A stretch of 64,000 nucleotides of DNA, taken from positions 141,050-205,049 of the forward strand of contig CAVZJU010000003.1 of the NCBI GenBank assembly GCA_963775695.1. The letters are read 5' to 3'. The notes below the pieces were generated by a model. The model searched no databases, was not told the DNA's origin, and saw only the letters and a program-made list of their open reading frames with translations. This stretch comes from an uncultured Actinomycetes bacterium (GTDB lineage Bacteria > Actinomycetota > Thermoleophilia > Gaiellales > Gaiellaceae). The position numbers were made by a program, and so were the translations under genes. Below are positions 5,511 to 23,554 of the stretch, in pieces (the stretch's first letter is position 1; the number at the start of each line of letters is the position of its first letter).

Positions 5511-5588
5511 GGCGGCGGAGGAGTAAACGGGTTCCCGCGGCCGAGAACGGCCGAACGTCCTGGCCGGCACGTACGATCGCCGGGTCTC

Positions 5589-5635
5589 GGCGATGAGGCC
5601 CGCCGCCAACCGCCCGTGAGGCTGATGGCTTCTAC
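5589..5635 (+). promoter_or_regulatory. fluoride riboswitch (crcB motif), copy 1
   Basis: GGCGATGAGGCCCGCCGCCAACCGCCCGTGAGGCTGATGGCTTCTAC. Contains P1 (GGCG/CGCC), the AACCGCC block and GGCTGATGGCTTCTAC, with pseudoknot GAGGCC:GGCTTC. Closely resembles the Thermotoga petrophila crystallised aptamer as I recall it (GGCGAUGAGGCCCGCCCAAACUGCCCUGAAAAGGGCUGAUGGCCUCUAC). Confidence 0.85.
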
Positions 5636-5651
5636 GAACCAGGAGGTGCCT

Positions 5652-5888
5652 GTGATGCCGGGACGGGTTCGTGAGCCGAGGTACGACGTATCCCTCGAAC
5701 GCAAGATCGCCTGGGGAGCCGCGACGTTTGTCGCCGTCTCCGTCGTCGGGCTCCGGCTGGAGCCTGGTCTGCGCCTCGTGTGGATAGTGGCGCTGGTCTT
5801 CGGCGCGGGCGCGATCGGCACGATCGTGGGCGGCCGACTCGGCCGACCCACGATTCGGGGGCGGCGGTTGCGGCGCGGCTCGCGCTGA
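5652..5888 (+). CDS. small 2-TM membrane protein (unknown function)
   Basis: AGGAGG at 5641-5646, then GTG 5652 / ATG 5655. Product MPGRVREPRYDVSLERKIAWGAATFVAVSVVGLRLEPGLRLVWIVALVFGAGAIGTIVGG... First ORF after riboswitch 1. Confidence 0.5.
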   Translation: MMPGRVREPRYDVSLERKIAWGAATFVAVSVVGLRLEPGLRLVWIVALVFGAGAIGTIVGGRLGRPTIRGRRLRRGSR

Positions 5889-6363: not shown

Positions 6364-6505
6364 GTTCGTGAGCTGGCCGGACAGCCCGAAGGAGTGCACC
6401 CGCTGCCGCTTCTCGCGCCCTTCGAGACGCCGTCGCGCGACGACGCCGGGTACGAGATCGTCGGCTGCTGCCGAAACCCCCGCATCGGCATGGACCTGTT
6501 CGCTT

Positions 6506-7768
6506 TCAGACGTCGCGATCCGGATCTGATGGAGCCCTGCCCGTCCTTTCGTCCCGGGACACCGGATTGACTGCCCCGCCGGAGAGCACCGAAACCGCCA
6601 TCCATCCGGCTGCGTAGAAGAAGGCCGCAGTCGGGGAGACCAGAGTCCACAGCAGACCGACCGCCGCCGACGAGCCGAAGTCGCCGAACGACTGCACCCC
6701 CCCGAGCACTCCGAAGCCGCTCCCTCGCAGTCGGTCCGGGAGGAGTCGCGCGACGAGCGCCGACTCGGCGGTCTCGGCGAGCCCGATCCCGCCGCCTGCG
6801 AGGAAGAACGGCACGACCAGAAACGGCCACGACTCGAGTGGCAGGGCGAACAGCGTGTACGCAACGACGTAGAGGAGGCCGCCCGTTGCGAACACGATCC
6901 TGGGCCCGACGCGGTCGAGCCAGTGGCCTCCTCCGTAGGCGGCGAACGTGGCGACCAGGTTGTGGCCGGCGTAGATCAGGACCGCGATCGAGGTCGCGGC
7001 GGTGAGGGAGCGCTCTCCGTGGTGGAGGAGCGTCGTCGCCCGGAGGATCAGGAGAGTCGTCGCCATGTTGCCGAGCTCGAAGGCGGAGATGGGCAGCAGC
7101 GGGCGCATCAGACCGGCTTCGCGGAGACCCGAGAAGTCGAAGCGGGCGCGGCGCGGGACAGCGTGGTGGGCGCGCCGCGCCTCGGCCGCTGCCACCGTGA
7201 TCGCCGCCGCCGCGAAGAACCCCGGAACGGCGGAGAGGTAGAGCGTCGGTCGGATCCCGATCCAGGCCACGAGCCCGGCGGCCAGGAGCGGACCGGCGAC
7301 GGCACCGAGATTGTCCCCGGCCCGCTCGAGGCCGAAGGCCCGCCCGTAGGTGGACGGCGAGGCGAGTGAGGCGAGCATCGCGTCGCGGGCCGGCGAGCGC
7401 ACACCTCGGGCCAGCCACGCGCCTGCGCGGAGGAGGCCGACCTGCCAGACCGTGCTCGCGAGTCCGAGGGCTCCGGTGGCTGCCGCGGTGACGACGTAGC
7501 CGCCTGTGGCCAGCCGCAGTCGGCGCGACTCGTCGTTCGCGAGCGGGCCGCTGATGAGCTTCGCGACCCCCGTGAGACCGTCGCTGATCCCTTCGATCAG
7601 CCCCAGGGCGCCCGCGGAGGAGCGGAGGACCACGGTCACGAAGCTCGGCAGCACCGAGGTCGCGATCTCGTGGCCGAAGTCGCTGAAGAAGCTCGCGACG
7701 CCGATCCCGGCGACGCCGCGGGTCAGCCACGAGCGGCGACCCTCGGCGGTCGTCTCGGTCGTCGTCAT
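6506..7768 (-). CDS. MFS transporter
   Basis: ATG at 7768 gives MTTTETTAEGRRSWLTRGVAGIGVASFFSDFGHEIATSVLPSFV... About 12 TM. Lies 25 nt downstream of the MutS-like pair on the same strand. Confidence 0.85.
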   Translation of the reverse strand: MTTTETTAEGRRSWLTRGVAGIGVASFFSDFGHEIATSVLPSFVTVVLRSSAGALGLIEGISDGLTGVAKLISGPLANDESRRLRLATGGYVVTAAATGALGLASTVWQVGLLRAGAWLARGVRSPARDAMLASLASPSTYGRAFGLERAGDNLGAVAGPLLAAGLVAWIGIRPTLYLSAVPGFFAAAAITVAAAEARRAHHAVPRRARFDFSGLREAGLMRPLLPISAFELGNMATTLLILRATTLLHHGERSLTAATSIAVLIYAGHNLVATFAAYGGGHWLDRVGPRIVFATGGLLYVVAYTLFALPLESWPFLVVPFFLAGGGIGLAETAESALVARLLPDRLRGSGFGVLGGVQSFGDFGSSAAVGLLWTLVSPTAAFFYAAGWMAVSVLSGGAVNPVSRDERTGRAPSDPDRDV

Positions 7769-7793: not shown

Positions 7794-9320
7794 TCAGCGG
7801 GCCGTCCGTGCCTCTGCGGCGTTCGACTCGATTCCGAAGACCCTGCGGTAGGAGTCCTCGCCGTAGCTCGTCGGGAGCGGCTCGCCCTTGACGATACGGA
7901 ATGTCCTTCGGCCGCCGCTCCCGCGTTCGGCACGCAGGAACAGGGTGGTGTCGAGGCGCTGCGCGTGCAGGGTGTGCGCAAGGTCGTAGAGGTGGGTGAC
8001 GAAGAAGACCTTCACCCCGGAGTCGAGCATCGCGCGGATCACCTGGCGGGCGATCTCGGAGCCTTCCCGCTCGTTGGTCGCGGCGAACGACTCGTTGCAG
8101 AGCAAGAGGCAGCCCGGGGTGATCTCATCGGCGATCGCGCTCATCCTGGCGAGCTCCTCGTCGAGCTTCCCGCTCTCCATCGATTCGTCCTCCTCGCGCT
8201 TGTAATGGGTGAAGACGCCGCTGACGACGCCGGCCCGGAGGAATGCAGCGGGGGCGAACAGCCCGCACTGCATCATCAGCTGCGCGATGCCCGTGCTCCG
8301 CAGGAACGTCGACTTGCCGCCCTGGTTCGCGCCCGTGATCATCACGAGCGACCTGCCGTCCGCGTCGACGTCGTTTCCGACCACGCGTGGATCGAGGTGC
8401 AACGAGAGCGCCGCGTCGTACAGGTTCTCGGCGCTGAAAGCAGTGGCATTCCGGTCGACCGGTTCGGGGAAGCAGATCGGCTCGCCCTTCTCCGTCAGCC
8501 TCGCGTGCAGGTTCAGCGCCCCGAGGTAGAAGGCGATCTCGGCCCGCAGGACGGTGAAGAAGCTGACGATGTGGTCGGTCGACTGGCCCACGGCGTTGGC
8601 GACCAGGTTGGTGCCCTTGCCGCGCAGGTCGTCGAGCGCCTTGAAACCCGCCTCGTCCCGCGGCGGGATCGTGAAGCTGCGGCTCGGCGGCCCCTGCCCG
8701 GGGATGCGCTCGAGCCAGCCTCGCCGGCGGGGACGGCGCAGAACGTGCCCCACGCCCCTGTTGGCCCTTCCCAGACGCGCGCTCATGAGCTCTCCGCGGT
8801 CGAACTTCAGCTCCTTCAGGTAGCGGCGGAGAACGCCGAGGTACTCGTCGTCGAGCTCGGCCCGGAGCATGCCGAAGAACCGCTCGAACGCGTCGGAACG
8901 GAAGCTCGGCGCTTCCTCGTCGGCGAGCTTACGCAGGCGCTCGAGGACGTCGACGAGCGCCTGCAGCACCTGCACCGAGCTGTGCAGGATCATCCCCGGC
9001 GACGCGTGCCTGAGGCCGAAGAACAGGCTTGCCTTCCGCGGCGCGTTGACGGCCTCGACGGCCAGGTCGTAGATCGCCCTGACGGTCGCTTCGTGGGCCA
9101 GGCAGTCGGCCAGGACCTGTTGCCGGTACCGGATCTCTTCCCGCGTTCGCAGGTTCGCGAGCAGACCCTTGCCGGCGATCCCGCGCAGGAAATCGTCGCC
9201 CGCGGCCATCGCCTCGACCAGGGTCTCCAGCTCGAGGTCCTGGATCAGCGCGTCGGCGTTGGCCGGTGGCTCGCGCTCGACGTCGAAGTCGCGGTCGGCG
9301 TGCATGAGGAAGACCCTCAT
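7794..9320 (-). CDS. MutS-domain-V ATPase (MutS-related, no mismatch-binding domain), paralog B
   Basis: ATG 9320 overlaps the upstream stop (ATGA). Walker A GANQGGKST. Walker-B region LLLCNESFAATNEREG (NE instead of DE). Confidence 0.85.
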   Translation of the reverse strand: MRVFLMHADRDFDVEREPPANADALIQDLELETLVEAMAAGDDFLRGIAGKGLLANLRTREEIRYRQQVLADCLAHEATVRAIYDLAVEAVNAPRKASLFFGLRHASPGMILHSSVQVLQALVDVLERLRKLADEEAPSFRSDAFERFFGMLRAELDDEYLGVLRRYLKELKFDRGELMSARLGRANRGVGHVLRRPRRRGWLERIPGQGPPSRSFTIPPRDEAGFKALDDLRGKGTNLVANAVGQSTDHIVSFFTVLRAEIAFYLGALNLHARLTEKGEPICFPEPVDRNATAFSAENLYDAALSLHLDPRVVGNDVDADGRSLVMITGANQGGKSTFLRSTGIAQLMMQCGLFAPAAFLRAGVVSGVFTHYKREEDESMESGKLDEELARMSAIADEITPGCLLLCNESFAATNEREGSEIARQVIRAMLDSGVKVFFVTHLYDLAHTLHAQRLDTTLFLRAERGSGGRRTFRIVKGEPLPTSYGEDSYRRVFGIESNAAEARTAR

Positions 9321-10870
9321 GACGCGACCCGCTCCCGCAGCCGTTCGTACGTGAGACCGTACTTCTCGGCGATCGCCCAGGCGTAGGCGCGTCCGTCGGC
9401 CGGCCGGCGGACGAGCTTGAAGGTCCGAAGGGCGGGATTCCCCGGAACGACGGTGCTGACCATGCTGACCGTCGCATCGCTGAGCGACGCGAGCTCGTCC
9501 ACGAAGGTGACGTAGACACCGAGCAGGTCCAGGTCGAGCAATGCCCTCAGCACCTCGGTCCCGATGAAGAGCGCGTCGCTCAGCGTCGTCGACCCGAAGC
9601 TCTCGTTCATGACGACCACGCTCTCCGGGGTCGCCTGCTCGAGGATCTCGTGGACGCGGACGAGCTCGTCGTCGAGCTTGCCGCGGAGCGTCTCGATGTC
9701 CTCCTCGCGCTCGAAGTGGGTGAAGATGCGGTCGGGCAGGAAGAGCCGTGCCGCACTCCCGGGGACGGGGAGGCCGAGACTGGCCAGATGGTGGAGCTGT
9801 CCGAACATGCGGGCGAAGGTCGTCTTGCCCCCGTTGTTCGGCCCGGTGACGACGATGCACCGTTCCGTCCCCCGAAGCTCGAGGTCGTTGCAGACCACCG
9901 TTCCCCGCTCGGAGACGAGCTTGAGCGCCAGGGCGAGGTCGAAGGTCTCCGACGCGGTGGTGTCCTTCGAGCGTGCCGAGACGTGCGGGAAGCAGAATCG
10001 CAGGCCGACCCGCTCGAGCGGCTCGATCAGCTCGAGATACGCGACGTAGAACTGAATCTCGCGGTCGAAGCGGACGATCGCCGGCTCCAGGAAGTCCGCG
10101 TGGCGGCTGCAGAAGGCGTCGAGGGCGCCGAACGGGTCCGGGTTCAGCTGCGCGACCAGGGCCAGGATCTGCCCTTCGACGTGGCTCATGTGCGGCCACT
10201 CGCGCAGCTCGAGGAGGTAGCTCTTCGCGGCCCCCTGCTTGAACCGGGCAAATGTCTGCTCGACCTCCGCGCTGTAGTCCGGTTCGCCCGCATACCCGGT
10301 GACGGTGACGCGGGGCCCGTTGATCTGGACGGCGTAGACGACCTCGCCGAGAGCCTCCTCGACCGTACGCCCCTCGGTCTCGAGCGAGGCAAAGGCGTCC
10401 GAGGCCACGTAGCTCTCGAGACAGGCGGCGAGGGACCGGAGGCCGCGGGATGTGACGTCGAGCGAGGAGAGCTCGTCGGCGAGGGTGCGGACGCTTGCGC
10501 AGTAGGTGCCGGCGGCGTCCAGGAACCAGCGCTCCCTCTCGAAGTGGTACCGCCGGTCGCCCGCCTGCGCCAGGTACGTCCGTGTCGTCCGCATCCGATC
10601 GGCGAACCGGCGCACCGAGGCCATCACCTGGTCGTTGCGCAGGTCGCGGACGACCTCGTGCCGGTAGCGGACCGTCTCCACGTCCCGTTGCGCTGCCTGG
10701 AAGAACGGCTCGAGCTCGTACTCCTCGCGCCCGGCGGTCAGCCCCGCCAGCACCTGGTCGAGGTTCAGGTCGGCGAAGGAGTCCGGCTCGGCGGTCGCCT
10801 CGCCAGCTGGCCGCCCCGGAAAGAGGACTGTTCGGAACTTCCCAGCTTCCCGCCCGTTGCGATCCGCCAT
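9317..10870 (-). CDS. MutS-domain-V ATPase (MutS-related), paralog A
   Basis: 517 aa. Walker A GPNNGGKTT. Walker-B region VVVMNESFGSTT. Start codon is 25 nt downstream of riboswitch copy 2. Confidence 0.85.
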   Translation of the reverse strand: MADRNGREAGKFRTVLFPGRPAGEATAEPDSFADLNLDQVLAGLTAGREEYELEPFFQAAQRDVETVRYRHEVVRDLRNDQVMASVRRFADRMRTTRTYLAQAGDRRYHFERERWFLDAAGTYCASVRTLADELSSLDVTSRGLRSLAACLESYVASDAFASLETEGRTVEEALGEVVYAVQINGPRVTVTGYAGEPDYSAEVEQTFARFKQGAAKSYLLELREWPHMSHVEGQILALVAQLNPDPFGALDAFCSRHADFLEPAIVRFDREIQFYVAYLELIEPLERVGLRFCFPHVSARSKDTTASETFDLALALKLVSERGTVVCNDLELRGTERCIVVTGPNNGGKTTFARMFGQLHHLASLGLPVPGSAARLFLPDRIFTHFEREEDIETLRGKLDDELVRVHEILEQATPESVVVMNESFGSTTLSDALFIGTEVLRALLDLDLLGVYVTFVDELASLSDATVSMVSTVVPGNPALRTFKLVRRPADGRAYAWAIAEKYGLTYERLRERVAS

Positions 10871-10894
10871 CCGCTTCCACCACCAGTAGGTTCG

Positions 10895-10941
10895 GTAGAA
10901 GCCATCAGCCGCTCTGGCGGTTTCAGGCGGGCTTCATCGCC
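10895..10941 (-). promoter_or_regulatory. fluoride riboswitch (crcB motif), copy 2
   Basis: Minus-strand sense: GGCGATGAAGCCCGCCTGAAACCGCCAGAGCGGCTGATGGCTTCTAC. Pseudoknot GAAGCC:GGCTTC is fully Watson-Crick. Confidence 0.85.
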
Positions 10942-11015
10942 GCTGACATCCTACCGCTGGCGGCCGTTCCCACGCCGGTCGCGGCCGGTTCTGCGTGCGG
11001 CTGGATTTCGTTGCA

Positions 11016-11064
11016 GCGCGATGAGGCTCCGCGCCCAACCGCCGCTCCGGCTGATGGCCTCTAC
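11016..11064 (+). promoter_or_regulatory. fluoride riboswitch (crcB motif), copy 3
   Basis: GCGCGATGAGGCTCCGCGCCCAACCGCCGCTCCGGCTGATGGCCTCTAC. Pseudoknot GAGGC:GCCTC. Divergent from copy 2. Confidence 0.8.
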
Positions 11065-11090
11065 CGACTGGCCCTCGAGGGGGAGTGGTG

Positions 11091-11210
11091 ATGGAGGTCA
11101 AGGTTCGGGCAATCGTCGTCTGCGGGAACCGGCTGCTGGTCACCCGCGAACGCCGCCGGGCAGCCGAGCACTCCTCGCTGCCGGGAGGTCGCGTCAAGCG
11201 CTGGGAGTAG
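11091..11210 (+). pseudogene. 39-codon NUDIX-hydrolase N-terminal stub
   Basis: Hand-found ATG 11091 to TAG 11210: MEVKVRAIVVCGNRLLVTRERRRAAEHSSLPGGRVKRWE. This reads like a NUDIX N-terminus up to LPGG, but the NUDIX box (GxxxxxExxxxxxxREUxEExGU) is absent. Confidence 0.35.
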
Positions 11211-11488
11211 CGGATGTCACCTGTGCGGTCGTAGTCCGCGAGGAGCGCTCGGACGCGCGCCGGCGTCTCCGACGGACCGGTGCAGGAGAACGCCAGCCTG
11301 GCGTCGCGACTGCTCTTTCCTGCTCGCCAGAACGACGACATCCAGCGCTCTTCGTCTTCGAAGATCGTCCGGCGGAGCGGACAGCCACTGCGAGCGAAGG
11401 GCTCGACGAGGTCGAGGGCCAGGAAATCGGCCACCGGAGAGGCCTCCCTCCCGGCTCCGGCCCGAGCCAGGTCGTCTCGTGCCTCCGC

Positions 11489-12001
11489 TCAGCCGCCGAG
11501 ACGCGCTGCGTACCGAGCCTGTGCCTGCTCGATCTCTCGCTCCGCTGCCTCGCGACCGGCCCAGCCCTCGATCGCCGTCAACCGCTCGGGCTCGAGCTCC
11601 TTGTAGACGGAGAAGAAATGTGCGATTTCGTCGCGGACGCGCGCGGAGACGTCGTCGAGCTCGTAGACGTCCCGCCACTCGGCATCGTGCAGCGGGACGC
11701 AGAGCACCTTGTCGTCGACGCCGGATTCGTCCCGCATCTGGAAGATGCCGATCGGCCTGACGTCGATTCTGCAGCCGGGGAACGTCGGCTCGCTGACCAG
11801 CACGAGCGCGTCGAGCTGCGCATCCATCTCGCGCTGACGCTGGCCGTGGTCGACCAGCGTGTCCTCCAGGAAGCCGTAGTCGGCCGGGAACACGACCGAC
11901 GAGAACAGGTGCCGATCGAGCCTGAAGACGCCCCTGCCCACATCCCACTCGTACTTGTTCTGGCTCCCCTTCGGCACTTCGACGAAGCAGACGAGCTCCA
12001 C
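11489..12001 (-). CDS. ppa: inorganic pyrophosphatase, family I (atypical metal-site region)
   Basis: VEVPKGSQNKYEWD, FPADYGFLEDTL, IRPIGIFQMRDESGVDDKVLCVP, IAHFFSVYKELE. An insertion and substitutions occur at the DxDxxD segment (see findings). Confidence 0.9.
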   Translation of the reverse strand: MELVCFVEVPKGSQNKYEWDVGRGVFRLDRHLFSSVVFPADYGFLEDTLVDHGQRQREMDAQLDALVLVSEPTFPGCRIDVRPIGIFQMRDESGVDDKVLCVPLHDAEWRDVYELDDVSARVRDEIAHFFSVYKELEPERLTAIEGWAGREAAEREIEQAQARYAARLGG

Positions 12002-12032: not shown

Positions 12033-12470
12033 TCAATCCGCCGGCTCCTCCGATACGACCAGAACGGGTACCTCCGCCGAGGCGATCAGGCGCTCGGCCA
12101 CGCCGTGGAGGAGGAAGCGTCCGGGGCGGCGGCTGCGGTGATGGCCGACGATCACCAGGTCGAACCCGTGCTCACGCGCATAGTCGAGCAGGTCCTCCAC
12201 CGGATGGTCGCCTTCGATGATCTCCTGGCGGACGTCGACCCCGGCACGGTCGGCGCGGTCGAGGAAGTGGTCGAAGGTCTCCCTCAGGTACCTGGTCGCC
12301 GCATCGACCGATTCGGCGCGGTCGGCCTCGGTCTCCGCGTGGGCGGGGGAATGCGCGACGGACGCGGCGACGATGTCCGCCTGGTAGCGGCGGGCCAGAT
12401 CCAGCGCGAGGTCGAATGCACGCGCCGCGGGGCGTGAGCCGTCCCAGGCGATGAGGATTTCCTGGAACAT
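12033..12470 (-). CDS. universal stress protein (UspA family)
   Basis: ATG 12470 overlaps the upstream stop by 1 nt (TGATG). MFQEILIAWDGSRPAARAFDLALDLARRY...DLVIVGHHRSRRPGRFLLHGVAERLIASAEVPVLVV. Confidence 0.85.
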   Translation of the reverse strand: MFQEILIAWDGSRPAARAFDLALDLARRYQADIVAASVAHSPAHAETEADRAESVDAATRYLRETFDHFLDRADRAGVDVRQEIIEGDHPVEDLLDYAREHGFDLVIVGHHRSRRPGRFLLHGVAERLIASAEVPVLVVSEEPAD

Positions 12471-18161: not shown

Positions 18162-19790
18162 TCAGCCGCGAAGCCGGTTCAGCACGTCAGTCGTGACCGA
18201 GGTGCGCTGGACGCTGAAGTACTGGACGAGGAGGACGAAGACCAGGAGCCCGATGAAGACGTCGAAGAGCAGGAGCAGGGCGAGGATCAGGGGAAGGCTG
18301 GGGGCGATGACCAGGGCCGCGAGGGTGACCCCGTTCTCGAGCACGAGGAAGCCGATCACCTGCGACGGCGCGTAGGGCCGGAGGATCATCAGGAGCAGTG
18401 CGACCAGCACGATCGCAACCGCAATGCCGAGCGCCTCCAGCGGGAGCGCTCCCTGGTGATCGAGATGGAGCCGTGAGAGGGCGATGAAGCTGAAGCTGGA
18501 GAGGACGATGCCGAGCAGCGCTGCGCTCGGCACCCGCACCGTCGACGGGACGCGCATGGACACGTCCAGCCTCGTAATGGTCGCCCCGATCGCGAGCGGG
18601 ATGGCGATCGTCTTGAAGGCGATCGTGATCGCCCCGATCACCCACAGATCGGCGTGGTGGAGCTTCGCCGCCGCTGCGAACGCGACGATTGCGACAGCGG
18701 CGGAACCGAGGCCGTACAGCCGCAGCTGCCCCCGGATGTCCTGCGTGCGTAGGAGTGCGAACTCGAGCAACAGGACGGTGACTGCGACGACGCTCGCGAT
18801 GCCGCCGAACACGGTGAGGTGGACGGTCCCGTACTGTCGCTGGAGCACGAACGTGATCACGGCCAGGACGGCGAAGAGAAAGCCGGCCACGGTGAACTCG
18901 GGGATCTTGTAAAGGCGCAGCTTCGCGAACGACGACTCGATGACGACGATCGCGGCTCCGACGACGAGCGCCTTCCCGAACAGAATCGCGATCGCCAGGA
19001 GGACGCTGTCGAGCCGCCGGTCCCCCGCCAGGCCCCACGGCGCGGTGAGGACGTTGGCGAGGATGACGAAGAGGATCATCTGCTTCATCGACGAGCCCCA
19101 CTTGAGCAGGGCGTAGCCGGGGCCGGAGTGCTCGAGCGTCCGGCCTTCCTCGATCATCCCGAACTCCAGGGTGGCCCCGTGGTTCTCCAGTGGGATCCGC
19201 CCGGTCTCGGAGATGACGACCATGAAGAACGCTGCCGCGGCGAGAAGATGAGCGGGCCGGAAGACCTCGACCGCGGACGACTTGAGCGTCGCGGCGAAGG
19301 CGTAGGGGAGGTCGGTGCCCGTGATGAGCGCGACCGAGAAGATGACGAAGATGATCGTCGGCTCGCCGAGCGCGCCGAACGTGCGGAGCCGGCTCGAGCC
19401 GAGCTGGGTATACGGGCTGCCGCTGTCGATAGCGGCCAGCGAGACGGCATAGCTTGCGAGCCCGAGCACGAAGCCGCCGCCGAGGATGTCCCCCATGTAG
19501 GCCGGTTGGGGCGGGAAGTCCGTCAGCACCGGGATCAGGAGCGGGACAACGCAGTAGCAGGCGAAGGCGACGTAGGGAGCGATCCGGAACACCGGCCCTG
19601 CCCCGTCCGGAAGGACCGTCTCCTTCCGGAAGAACTTGGCGATGTCGTGGTAGGGCTGGAGCAGCCTGGGCCCGTGCCGTCCCTGCACCAGGGCCTCGGC
19701 CCGGGCGATGACACCGGTGACCAGCGGCGAGACGAGCAGGATCGTCCCCAGCTGGAAAGCCTGGATCAGTCCGTCGCTCAGCTGCGGCAT
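18162..19790 (-). CDS. HycD/HyfC-like (NuoH-like) subunit fused to a HyfE-like (NuoK-like) membrane module
   Basis: 542 aa. N-terminal ~300 aa: LVSPLVTGVIARAEALVQGRHGPRLLQPYHDIAKFFRKE...EFGMIEEGRTLEHSGPGYALLKW (HycD-like). C-terminal ~220 aa are multi-TM and HyfE-like. First gene after riboswitch copy 4. Confidence 0.8.
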   Translation of the reverse strand: MPQLSDGLIQAFQLGTILLVSPLVTGVIARAEALVQGRHGPRLLQPYHDIAKFFRKETVLPDGAGPVFRIAPYVAFACYCVVPLLIPVLTDFPPQPAYMGDILGGGFVLGLASYAVSLAAIDSGSPYTQLGSSRLRTFGALGEPTIIFVIFSVALITGTDLPYAFAATLKSSAVEVFRPAHLLAAAAFFMVVISETGRIPLENHGATLEFGMIEEGRTLEHSGPGYALLKWGSSMKQMILFVILANVLTAPWGLAGDRRLDSVLLAIAILFGKALVVGAAIVVIESSFAKLRLYKIPEFTVAGFLFAVLAVITFVLQRQYGTVHLTVFGGIASVVAVTVLLLEFALLRTQDIRGQLRLYGLGSAAVAIVAFAAAAKLHHADLWVIGAITIAFKTIAIPLAIGATITRLDVSMRVPSTVRVPSAALLGIVLSSFSFIALSRLHLDHQGALPLEALGIAVAIVLVALLLMILRPYAPSQVIGFLVLENGVTLAALVIAPSLPLILALLLLFDVFIGLLVFVLLVQYFSVQRTSVTTDVLNRLRG

Positions 19791-19823
19791 CCGTCCCGAC
19801 GTCTCCTTGCCCTCGACTACGAG

Positions 19824-19891
19824 CTAGAAGCCATCAGCCGTCGGAACGGCGGTTCGGAGCGGGGGCCGCTCCCGCCAGAGCTTCATCTGGC
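19824..19891 (-). promoter_or_regulatory. fluoride riboswitch (crcB motif), copy 4, with an extra inserted hairpin
   Basis: Minus-strand sense: GCCAGATGAAGCTCTGGC-GGGAGCGGCCCCCGCTCC-GAACCGCCGTTCCGACGGCTGATGGCTTCTAG. Same core blocks. An 18-nt GC hairpin is inserted between P1 and the AACCGCC block. Confidence 0.8.
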
Positions 19892-20034
19892 GTCGCCAGC
19901 GTAGCGAATCGCCGACGCGGTCCGGACGGTACCGGACACGCAGGACGCAGACCTGGAACCCGAACTCCAGGCGCGCCGCCACCGGCCGAGACGGTTGGAC
20001 CGGCCCTGTTCGGCTAGGCTGATTCCACACCGGT

Positions 20035-20080
20035 CGCGATGAGGCCCGCGCTCAACCGCCTTCGGGCTGATGGCTTCTGT
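20035..20080 (+). promoter_or_regulatory. fluoride riboswitch (crcB motif), copy 5
   Basis: CGCGATGAGGCCCGCGCTCAACCGCCTTCGGGCTGATGGCTTCTGT. Divergent from copy 4. Followed by GGGAGG and ATG 20115. Confidence 0.8.
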
Positions 20081-20114
20081 GTCTTCTTCGGGTTCGCTCC
20101 AGGGAGGCGGACGT

Positions 20115-20540
20115 ATGAGTCATCTCGCGCCGGATTCAGCCGGAAGTGCCCAGGTCGAGATCGACGTCGACCCGGCTGGGCTCGACGAGCTTCGCGGCCG
20201 GGCAGGCGACGCAGCACCGACCGCGGACGAGGACCTGCTCCGATACCTCGTGTACCTGGGCGCCGGCTACCTGGAGACCGAGGCAGTCTCTGCGGCTGCC
20301 CCGAGCGTCCACGAGGCCTATGCGCGCCTCGACCGCATGCATGCTGCCGTGGAGGGGCACTCGTCGGTCCTGAGTTTCCACTACGGCGAGTCGGCGCGAG
20401 AGTTCGCCGAAGAGGAGAGGGCACACGCGGCTCACGAGCGAAGCGCCGGAGCCTACGAGGGGCTTGTCGAGAAGCTCGAGGCGGAGATCGCAGCCCGGGA
20501 AAAGCGAGTCGTCAGGCTGAAACGAGCGCTCGAGCAATGA
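20115..20540 (+). CDS. hypothetical protein (acidic, C-terminal coiled-coil-like), first gene after riboswitch 5
   Basis: ATG 20115 is preceded by GGGAGGCGG. Product MSHLAPDSAGSAQVEIDVDPAGLDELRG...LVEKLEAEIAAREKRVVRLKRALEQ. High GC3. No family recognised. Confidence 0.6.
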   Translation: MSHLAPDSAGSAQVEIDVDPAGLDELRGRAGDAAPTADEDLLRYLVYLGAGYLETEAVSAAAPSVHEAYARLDRMHAAVEGHSSVLSFHYGESAREFAEEERAHAAHERSAGAYEGLVEKLEAEIAAREKRVVRLKRALEQ

Positions 20541-21067
20541 GGACATCGCTTCTGACGGCCGATCTCGACGAGTTCGAGCGGACCGGGGCCGACGTCGGAT
20601 CCGCGTTTGCCCGTGGCGCTCGCTCCCTCGGCTGCCGGCAACTCCACGAGCGCCTGCTTGAACCCTTCAGCACGGAGGCGGGGCTGACCGAGTTGGTCGA
20701 TCTCTATGCCGAGGCCTACGCCCGGATGCATCTGCTGCGGTTCGGCTACATGAGCAAGGCCGAGGCGTATGCCGAATCGAAGGAACGGTACGACGCCGTC
20801 GACGACGTGCTCTTCGACCTACGGCGGCACGTCGTCCCTGCTCTTCGAACCCGTCTGGCGGAGGTCAGGCAGCGTGAGGCGCAGCTCGTGGCGGAGGCCG
20901 AGGCGCGCGGCATCCCGACGGCTGAGATAGGCCCGATCGTCCCCGCGGATCGAGCGCAGGTGACGTCGGTTCGCCCAGGCGAAGGCCCTCCACAGCGCCG
21001 GACGCTTACACCCCTCGCTCCACGGCCTACGCGGCTGCAACGGTTGCGGCAACTGTTGCGTCGATGA
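20537..21067 (+). CDS. hypothetical protein
   Basis: ATG 20537 overlaps the upstream stop (ATGA). Product MRTSLLTADLDEFERTGADVGSAFARG...YMSKAEAYAESKERYDAVDDVLFDLRRHVVPALRTRLAEVRQREAQL. The C-terminal Arg/Pro-rich tail is uncertain. No family recognised. Confidence 0.55.
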   Translation: MRTSLLTADLDEFERTGADVGSAFARGARSLGCRQLHERLLEPFSTEAGLTELVDLYAEAYARMHLLRFGYMSKAEAYAESKERYDAVDDVLFDLRRHVVPALRTRLAEVRQREAQLVAEAEARGIPTAEIGPIVPADRAQVTSVRPGEGPPQRRTLTPLAPRPTRLQRLRQLLRR

Positions 21068-22498
<1,431 letters not shown>

Positions 22499-22499
22499 G

Positions 22500-23549
22500 T
22501 GTAGTTCCTGAACACGTTGGTTCATCCGGGCCTCCTTGGAGGCTGAGGGCTGCCAGGCACTCAGACTCAAGGAGGCATCCGGATGAGGCTTCACGGTAAC
22601 GCGGCTCTCAGTTGGAGCGGTCGGCGGCGGCTGGCCGAGCGCGTTGTTGTTCAGGGCTGGACGGTGAGTGCTGCCGCTGAGGCTGCCGGTGTCAGTGTCG
22701 GTTGCGCTCGCAAGTGGGTGAGCCGCTACCGGCTCGAGGGTGAGACGGGCTTGTGCGACCGTTCCTCGGCCCCTCGCCGAGTCTGGAATCGGACAGCGCC
22801 GGAGCGTGTTGAGGCGGTGATCGCGCTTCGGCGGCTGCGGATGACCGCAGCGGAGATCGCCGAGCTGCTTGGGATGGCGCTCTCGACCGTGTCAGGGATC
22901 CTGGCTCGGTGCGGAATCGGTCGTCTCGGTCGGATCGGGCTCGAAGCAGCTCGCCGATATGAGTACTCGCGGCCCGGTGAGCTCGTGCACATCGACGTGA
23001 AGAGACTCGGTCGAATCGAGGGTGCTGCTGGCAAGCGCATCAGCGGACGGCCCCACTCGCAGTACATGCCGAGGCGCACCGATGCCGCCGGCAGCCGGCG
23101 GAACACGGTCGGCTGGGAGTACGTCCACATCGCCGTCGACGACTACAGTCGCCTTGCCTACGCCGAGGTCCTCAACGACGAGAAAGCCGCTACCGCAGCC
23201 GGCTTCCTGCGTCGCGCTCTCCGCTACTACCGCCGCCACGGAATCCAAGTCGAGCGGATCCTGACCGACAACGGCTCCTGCTACCGCGCCGCGATCCACG
23301 CAGTCGCTTGCAGGGCCCTCGGCATCCGCCACAGCCGAACCCGCCCCTACCGGCCACAAACAAACGGCAAGGCCGAGCGCTTCATCCGCACTCTCCTCCA
23401 CGGGTGGGCCTACGGCGCGATCTACCGCTCAAGCCAAGAACGAACCGCGGCACTTGACGGCTGGCTCAGGCACTACAACCATCGCAGACGACACTCAGCC
23501 CTCGGCCACCAACCCCCGGTCAGCAGAACCAACCTGCTCGGGTCCTACA
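22500..23549 (+). mobile_element. IS481-family insertion sequence, apparently intact, with 6-bp target-site duplication ACTAGG
   Basis: IRL TGTAGTTCCTGAACACGTTGGTT (22500-22522) versus the reverse complement of 23527-23549, TGTAGGACCCGAGCAGGTTGGTT (18/23 identical). Flanks are ACTAGG at 22494-22499 and 23550-23555. Confidence 0.85.
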
Positions 23550-23554
23550 ACTAG
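22583..23554 (+). CDS. IS481-family transposase (DDE, rve domain)
   Basis: 323 aa: HTH N-terminus, HIDVKRLG, WEYVHIAVDDYSRLAY, TDNGSCY, RPYRPQTNGKAERF. The ORF reads through IRR and stops at the TAG within the duplicated CTAG. Confidence 0.9.
   Translation: MRLHGNAALSWSGRRRLAERVVVQGWTVSAAAEAAGVSVGCARKWVSRYRLEGETGLCDRSSAPRRVWNRTAPERVEAVIALRRLRMTAAEIAELLGMALSTVSGILARCGIGRLGRIGLEAARRYEYSRPGELVHIDVKRLGRIEGAAGKRISGRPHSQYMPRRTDAAGSRRNTVGWEYVHIAVDDYSRLAYAEVLNDEKAATAAGFLRRALRYYRRHGIQVERILTDNGSCYRAAIHAVACRALGIRHSRTRPYRPQTNGKAERFIRTLLHGWAYGAIYRSSQERTAALDGWLRHYNHRRRHSALGHQPPVSRTNLLGSYN

Follow-up and report, generated by a model that had tools for sequence, protein, structure and literature searches.

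Organization of the fluoride-riboswitch island

The window, i.e. the whole stretch of 64,000 nt that was analysed, comes from a soil metagenome-assembled genome (MAG) of the Gaiellaceae (Thermoleophilia) with a G+C content of 70%. Fluoride aptamers were called with the Rfam covariance model RF01734, for which the gathering cut-off (GA) is 34 bits. Five were found in the whole 4.0-Mb genome, RS1 to RS5, and all of them lie inside a single 15-kb island, so the closeness of the copies is not a matter of chance. RS2 and RS3 form one head-to-head pair, RS4 and RS5 a second one; both pairs, proposed in an earlier note on this DNA, are confirmed by the Rfam search and by direct reading of the aptamer cores. 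The spacers measured from P1 to P1 are 75 nt for the RS2-RS3 pair (10942-11016) and 144 nt for the RS4-RS5 pair (19891-20034), close to the 74 and 143 nt given in that note.

The features of the island are listed in Table 1. RS1 is followed by a small membrane ORF and a HAD-like gene, which were recognized from frame plots and, for the HAD-like gene, by a Pfam match; its -10 box, TACGAT, ends 11 nt before P1. RS2, RS4 and RS5 each lie 5′ to fluoride-associated genes on the same strand, and RS3 faces a NUDIX stub only. The 316-residue protein that opens the RS5 cargo has no Pfam match. MutS-like and NUDIX genes belong to the functions associated with fluoride riboswitches. The gene list given in PMC11139923 comprises pyrophosphatase, enolase, HAD-like proteins, a 'formate hydrogen lyase'-type complex and Na+/H+ antiporters, and the island cargo agrees with this list, the antiporters being found in relatives. 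No CrcB gene (PF02537) was found in the 95%-complete genome, despite the five fluoride riboswitches. In the genome of a sister species (G005), no enolase gene lies within 1.6 kb after the orthologous RS5 cargo; the enolase of the RS5 operon may be a recent addition.

Table 1. Coordinates of the island features, in window positions (blank, not given).
Feature	Position	Strand	Evidence and remarks
RS1 fluoride aptamer	5580-5641	+	RF01734, 47.1 bits; first module of the island
MFS transporter	from 6506	-	Pfam MFS_1, 5.9e-29; RS2 operon, after MutS-like B
MutS-like B	7794-9299	-	Pfam MutS_V, 1.4e-18; RS2 operon
MutS-domain-V protein A (MutS-like A)	9317-10870	-	Pfam MutS_V, 4.1e-16; first gene of the RS2 operon
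RS2 fluoride aptamer	10889-10950, core 10897-10941	-	RF01734, 50.2 bits
RS2 promoter block	10942-10984	-	43 nt conserved with sister genome G005; homology ends at 10984
RS2 -10 box TAGGAT	10948-10953	-	ends 6 nt before P1
Block missing from G005	10985-11482		about 500 nt; contains RS3, the NUDIX stub and a possible decayed minus-strand fragment
RS3 fluoride aptamer	11008-11070, core 11017-11062	+	RF01734, 38.0 bits
NUDIX hydrolase stub behind RS3	11091-11210	+	39 codons; reads MEVKVRAIVVCGNRLLVTRERRRAAEHSSLPGGRVKRWE, end ...LPGGRVKRWE
Pyrophosphatase gene	11489-12001	-	Pfam; far end of the RS4 operon
USP gene	12033-12470	-	Pfam; RS4 operon
NuoH-like gene	18162-19790	-	Pfam; first gene of the hydrogenase-related membrane-complex operon under RS4
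RS4 variant fluoride aptamer	19818-19890 (Rfam match 19818-19885), core 19826-19890	-	RF01734, 21.4 bits, E 0.16
RS4 -10 box TACGCT	19898-19903	-	ends 7 nt before P1; identical in G005
RS5 -10 box TAGGCT	20015-20020	+	ends 14 nt before P1; TACGCT at the same place in G005
RS5 fluoride aptamer	20026-20086, core 20035-20078	+	RF01734, 36.4 bits
316-aa protein	20117-21067	+	first RS5 cargo; 70% identity in G005, same aptamer upstream there
Enolase	21098-22498	+	Pfam; second RS5 cargo gene, RS5 cargo spanning 20117-22498
IS481-family transposase	22583-23554		downstream of the RS5 cargo, after the enolase gene

Aptamer cores and the RS4 variant

RS2, RS3 and RS5 score above the gathering cut-off and RS4 below it. 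Read directly, RS2 to RS5 all contain P1 with a GAUGnnGn loop, AACCGCC, P2 and CUGAUGRCYYCU, and in each of them the P1 loop forms a pseudoknot with the 3′ strand. The pseudoknot pairs covary: they are GAAGC/GCUUC in RS2 and RS4, GAGGC/GCUUC with one G-U pair in RS5, and GAGGCU/GGCCUC in RS3.

The core of RS4 is complete on direct reading, with P1 formed by CCAG/CUGG, the loop AUGAAGCU, AACCGCC, P2 and CUGAUGGCUUCU, the GCUUC of the latter pairing with GAAGC of the loop. A hairpin of 20 nt (19855-19874, minus strand) is inserted between P1 and AACCGCC, and it is this hairpin that the Rfam match takes for P1. RS4 thus falls under the cut-off because its P1 is changed and a hairpin is inserted. 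The variant is found ahead of the same hydrogenase-related operon in G005, in two other genomes of relatives (G001 and G019) and at two further loci (L024 and L033). The pairing of the hairpin is maintained by double changes, GGAGCGG/CCGCUCC in the window being replaced by GGAGGGA/UCCCUCC in G001; in G019, too, double changes keep the pairing. Since the core is complete and the hairpin covaries in relatives, we still read RS4 as a putative working variant of the fluoride aptamer.

Hairpins of the RS4 type were located in relatives at L001 13353-13374, L002 7183-7202 and L003 16215-16234. Aptamers that combine a CCAG/CUGG P1, in place of GGCG/CGCC, with the covarying hairpin score 20-29 bits in four genomes of the genus, and related forms are present in Solirubrobacterales MAGs.

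Predicted expression platforms

In the minimum-energy folds of RS2 to RS5, the 3′ pseudoknot strand of the aptamer pairs with the ribosome-binding or start-codon region. For RS2, the pairing predicted in the absence of ligand joins the 3′ strand GGCUUCUACC to the ribosome-binding region GGUGGAAGC; for RS3, the predicted partner is the start-codon region. The fold of RS1 leaves the Shine-Dalgarno sequence free. No terminator-like sites were found downstream of RS1 to RS5, and the sole such site that came up, a weak one (10985-11004), lies upstream of RS3. From these folds we infer translational ON switching.

A -10 hexamer next to P1

A consensus promoter scan of the window returned no promoters; such a scan demands a -35 element of the TTGACA type, which is wanting in these high-GC promoters. 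The upstream regions were therefore compared across relatives, using about 100 aptamers (102) from 84 related loci, four of which came from genomes of the same genus and order and 80 from a search with MutS-like A. In 61 of the 102 aptamers a TANNNT hexamer ends 6-9 nt before P1, the background being 0-3 per position at 16-69 nt upstream, and for the high-GC loci the distance is 5-15 nt in 71 of 84 aptamers. When the upstream regions are aligned on the hexamer, the one further position that carries information is a G, two bases 5′ of the box, and no -35 signal is seen in this alignment. The resulting motif, GnTAnnnT without a -35 element, is what we take to be the sigma-A promoter type of mycobacterial and Streptomyces transcription start site maps. 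The motif is the same as that of the actinobacterial promoters, and here it is placed in such a way that the predicted transcript begins at P1. Given a GnTAnnnT box that ends 6-9 nt before P1, and no -35 element, the aptamer should be the place where transcripts start, and 47-75 nt would then be enough room for a divergent pair. The position of the hexamer implies that transcripts would start at, or a few bases from, P1. Ahead of P1, the Rfam consensus itself has an A/U-rich flank ('auaauaaaa'), which may be a trace of similar promoter placement in other bacteria. All promoter assignments given here are motif-based predictions.

RS2-RS3: one predicted promoter and a probable remnant

The -10 box of RS2 occupies the family-wide peak position. 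Comparison of window positions 10850-11560 with G005 by blastn gave homology over 10857-10984 and again from 11483, where the pyrophosphatase gene has its 3′ end. The intervening block of about 500 nt is unique in the genome, and G005 carries 28 unrelated bases in its place. Since the homology with G005 ends at 10984, the RS2 promoter is self-contained in the 43-nt block between this position and P1.

On the RS3 side, neither TANNNT nor nAnnnT occurs on the plus strand across 10942-11016, so that of the two outward -10 elements expected for a divergent pair only TAGGAT of RS2 is present. RS3 is among the very few aptamers of the 102-aptamer survey that have no -10 box. An ECF-type promoter for RS3 (GGTTC...CGTT) was considered and dismissed as unconvincing. 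The gene behind RS3 is interrupted as well: the stub ends within the Nudix box and matches the N-terminus of a riboswitch-led NUDIX protein of 136 residues from a Solirubrobacter MAG (50% identity over 36 residues, E 2e-10); this protein itself matches Pfam NUDIX with 1.8e-10. An assembly error in the MAG is a conceivable source of the stub. Most likely, RS3 is a decaying module, the remnant of a riboswitch-NUDIX unit. The RS3 aptamer and its pseudoknot complement (GAGGCU/GGCCUC) are intact and the predicted platform is plausible; therefore the decay must be recent, or some residual activity, or transcription from a non-canonical promoter, may remain. That RS3 is still a working switch is quite doubtful. 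The claim that each spacer feeds two fluoride-gated leaders thus holds for the RS2 half of this pair, which has its promoter, and not for the RS3 half, where the box is wanting, the gene is a stub and the whole block is missing in G005.

The minus-strand fragment at 11212-11437 may be the decayed N-terminus of a Cys-motif protein, VADFLALDLVEPFARSGCPLRR..., and is not firmly named. It matches the start of a riboswitch-led ORF at locus L059 (47% over 30 residues, E 5e-5, a weak match from a small set) and, also weakly, a DUF6062 protein (E 0.004); the second Cys of its CxxC motif is replaced. A deletion that took the 3′ parts of two convergent genes would fit both the NUDIX stub and this fragment.

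RS4-RS5: two separate predicted promoters

The RS4-RS5 spacer carries an outward -10 element on each side, and the two boxes are 111 nt apart. That of RS5 lies, at 14 nt, outside the main 6-9 nt peak. Both aptamers and both boxes are kept in the sister species G005, where the spacer measures 124 nt and the RS5 orthologue scores 36 bits. As 111 nt separate the boxes and each is conserved on its own, the spacer would contain two promoters and no shared compact region. The earlier note had described both spacers as compact bidirectional promoter regions; the divergent -10 boxes of RS4-RS5, conserved in G005, bear out the bidirectional part of this description, but nothing is shared between them.

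Head-to-head pairs in related genomes

Besides the MAG of the window, at least 12 Thermoleophilia MAGs carry head-to-head pairs of fluoride aptamers, and so does a MAG that is labelled Alphaproteobacteria (L072), where the spacer is 149 nt and both aptamers are above the cut-off. Two such pairs, spaced 47 and 286 nt, are present in G019, and one each in G001 (74 nt) and G005 (124 nt). Among the loci centred on the MutS-like gene, the spacers are 60 nt in L007, 92 nt in L009, 133 nt in L018, 64 nt in L020, 54 nt in L023 and 59 nt in both L029 and L059. A class-level sample adds pairs in G096, G146 and G190. The weaker partners in L007, L009, L020, L029 and L059 were rechecked with Rfam and score 24.8-33.3 bits (E 2e-5 to 0.013). 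In most of the compact pairs a -10 box lies 6-10 nt from P1 on both aptamers, and full-length cargo is present on both sides in L007, L009 and L029. The cargos of the relatives' pairs include a Na+/H+ antiporter, DUF6062 and DUF4129 proteins, a pyrophosphatase-like protein and the hydrogenase-related complex. In every pair examined the -10 hexamers are separate, with gaps of 17-111 nt, and no single shared -10 occurs. Very compact divergent fluoride-switch promoters are thus the right idea for the lineage, and the pairs of the window are less compact ones. The footprint of RNA polymerase extends from about -55 to +20. On spacers of 47-64 nt, two such footprints would overlap.

In G019 (L001 6523-6740), the riboswitch that diverges from that of the MutS-like gene heads only a short ORF (about 46 codons), which adjoins a tRNA gene (6450-6523) and may be another truncated module beside a possible integration site. 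In another genome, G040 (L004 6839-6904, minus strand), a fluoride aptamer scoring 43.5 bits sits shortly ahead of a MutS-like gene of the plus strand; on its own strand it has no obvious cargo.

Origin of the arrangement

The partners of the pairs vary within the genus: RS2 with RS3 and RS4 with RS5 in the window, RS4 with RS2 in G001, and RSx with RS2 and RSppa with RS4 in G019. The aptamer type, for its part, tracks the cargo across orders. MutS-like A genes have a leader of the type GGCGAUGARGCCCGCC-UGAA(A)CCGCC (RS2 type; about 25 related loci), and the hydrogenase-related operon is led by the aptamer type with the CCAG P1 and the hairpin. Since the partners differ while the aptamer stays with its cargo, the modules would be old and reshuffled, not recently duplicated. 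This points to the head-to-head layout as a recurrent product of the reshuffling of old aptamer-cargo modules, with breakpoints between divergent promoters. Reshuffling by inversion is suggested by the three gene orders available within the genus; one inversion between spacers would turn a G001-like RS4-RS2 arrangement into that of the window. The RS5 cargo was sought in G001 and G019 and is absent from both; it was found in G005 only. No inverted repeat of the island is longer than that made up by the RS1 and RS2 aptamers (5588-5635 and 10895-10942), which spans 48 nt with 85% complementarity, and inverted aptamer repeats could mediate inversions. The RS1/RS2 repeat brackets two convergent operons; the gene order of G019 differs, the MFS and HAD genes being in one operon with Ppa.

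A different origin had been suggested in the earlier note, namely that the island was built by duplication of a promoter-aptamer module, and alignment of the spacers and of orthologous loci was proposed as a check. Recent duplication would make the spacers and aptamers paralogous. The alignment gives this reading some ground. The region upstream of RS2 (10946-11016) aligns with that upstream of RS5 (19953-20022) with a local score of 22, above the genomic background of 12.5 ± 2.3 obtained with random genomic 75-mers; the score was reached by two of 3000 random genomic segments. However, the corrected p is about 0.01-0.02 after some 20 comparisons, and G005 shows no comparable similarity between the two regions. 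The other upstream pairs are not clearly similar, the best being RS3/RS4 with an uncorrected p of about 0.02 among ten pairs. Taken together, homology of the regions upstream of RS2 and RS5 is weakly supported. Moreover, the variable positions of the aptamers (J1/2, P2 loop, P1 and the extra hairpin) match those of same-cargo orthologues in other orders and not those of the island neighbours; RS3 is of the GAGGCU/GGCCUC type of Solirubrobacterales, unlike RS1, RS2, RS4 and RS5. The aptamer types are cargo-specific across orders, hence old, and growth of the island by recent duplication appears unlikely.

Interpretation

The explanation that we consider probable is that of a five-module island of ordinary neighbouring promoters, in which RS4 and RS5 would be independent, RS3 would be a relic, and the layout would stem from reshuffling and not from a shared promoter. 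Each of the five modules would consist of a -10-only actinobacterial promoter, an aptamer at the transcription start, a translational platform and the cargo. Promoters of this kind need only about 20 nt (GnTAnnnT, no -35), and modules placed side by side would bring divergent aptamers to within tens of nucleotides of each other. At RS4-RS5, two independent promoters would drive the operon of the hydrogenase-related complex, USP and pyrophosphatase and that of the 316-residue protein and enolase. At RS2-RS3, the RS2 unit with the MutS-like/MFS operon would be the sole working one, RS3 being a riboswitch-NUDIX remnant that has presumably lost its -10 box and whose gene is cut to 39 codons. Fluoride would act after transcription: its binding is predicted to lock the pseudoknot and so to free the ribosome-binding or start-codon region from the 3′ strand of the aptamer. 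Repeated reshuffling of modules, with breakpoints between divergent promoters, would produce the recurring head-to-head layout.

Two other explanations were weighed against this one. If both spacers were compact shared bidirectional promoters, each would feed two functional fluoride-gated leaders, RS3 included. Both pairs are real, the RS3 aptamer and platform look intact, and relatives do have pairs of 47-64 nt with two -10 boxes and two full-length cargos, all of which agrees with a shared promoter. In the window, however, RS3 has no TANNNT and is followed by a 39-codon stub of a 136-residue NUDIX protein within a block missing in G005, and the RS4 and RS5 boxes, 111 nt apart and separately conserved, have nothing in common; we regard a shared promoter as very improbable here. 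The layout might instead be selected for a function of its own, either the coupling or balancing of two operons through polymerase footprints or the use of inverted aptamers as recombination sites for partner swapping. Its recurrence in many genomes with differing partners, the overlap of footprints that spacers of 47-64 nt would impose and the RS1/RS2 inverted repeat speak for such a function. However, clustering of regulon genes together with a normal frequency of divergent pairs could yield the same picture, and the pairs of the window are less compact, one of them being half dead, which leaves selection of the layout as such rather improbable. A further reading, in which the fluoride modules of Thermoleophilia form a recombining 'cassette' system, is also unlikely. 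In such a system, -10-only promoters would allow joining at 47-75 nt, inverted aptamers (perhaps with the RS2/RS5 upstream repeat) would swap partners without breaking operons, and the two promoters of the tightest pairs would be mutually exclusive and so set the expression ratio of the two operons.

Comparison with known systems

The aptamer architecture and the common cargo of the island are those of the RF01734 (crcB motif) fluoride riboswitch (Baker et al. 2012, via PMC11139923). The island differs from the typical case in that five copies are packed into 15 kb and the genome has no CrcB gene; unlike those of terminator-based fluoride switches, its platforms look translational in the predicted folds. 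The fluoride-resistance operon of Enterobacter cloacae FRM (PMC5533749) is likewise a riboswitch-led cluster, but one with a single riboswitch and a single operon that includes crcB, whereas five separately switched modules with two divergent pairs are found here. Within the window, the close spacing of two aptamers of the same class also invites comparison with tandem riboswitches. In tandem riboswitches (e.g. glycine), two aptamers in one transcript act jointly on one gene. Here, in contrast, the two aptamers lie on opposite strands and would belong to different transcripts, each with its own operon. Divergent transcription from a short region is also the hallmark of the bidirectional promoters of Warman et al. 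(2021, Nature Microbiology), which reportedly share one symmetrical -10 element, with starts about 18 bp apart. In the pairs examined here, by contrast, the aptamers have hexamers of their own, 17-111 nt from those of their partners.

The author of the earlier note had not seen the arrangement described, and a literature search of partial coverage likewise found no description of head-to-head riboswitch pairs, which is weak evidence of absence; among public Thermoleophilia genomes the layout as such is frequent. The 'divergent fluoride riboswitch' of bioRxiv 2026.10.21.760802 refers to a sequence-divergent candidate upstream of crcB and not to orientation. The layout is real, recurrent in Thermoleophilia and mechanistically ordinary, and has apparently gone unremarked so far.

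The head-to-head layout is a result of module packing and leaves the understanding of riboswitches unchanged. What the island offers is a clean and testable view of the wiring of a riboswitch regulon that spans several operons, in a class of actinobacteria that has been little studied and is for the most part uncultured. In this view, transcripts appear to start at the aptamer, a -10 box would suffice and control looks translational. Compact fluoride-responsive parts with two outputs could be made from the short natural spacers. Finally, the Rfam cut-off overlooks many genuine fluoride aptamers of Thermoleophilia, with scores of 21-33 bits, of the CCAG-P1/hairpin and AGCG...ACCGCGG types. Solirubrobacterales aptamers of the form AGCGAUGAGGCUCGCU...ACCGCGG...CCGCUGAUGGCCUCU occur in L009, L018, L020 (e.g. 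5724-5769), L023, L029 and L059 with 25-33 bits; annotation at the gathering threshold passes over them, and those that were rechecked gave E values of 2e-5 to 0.013.
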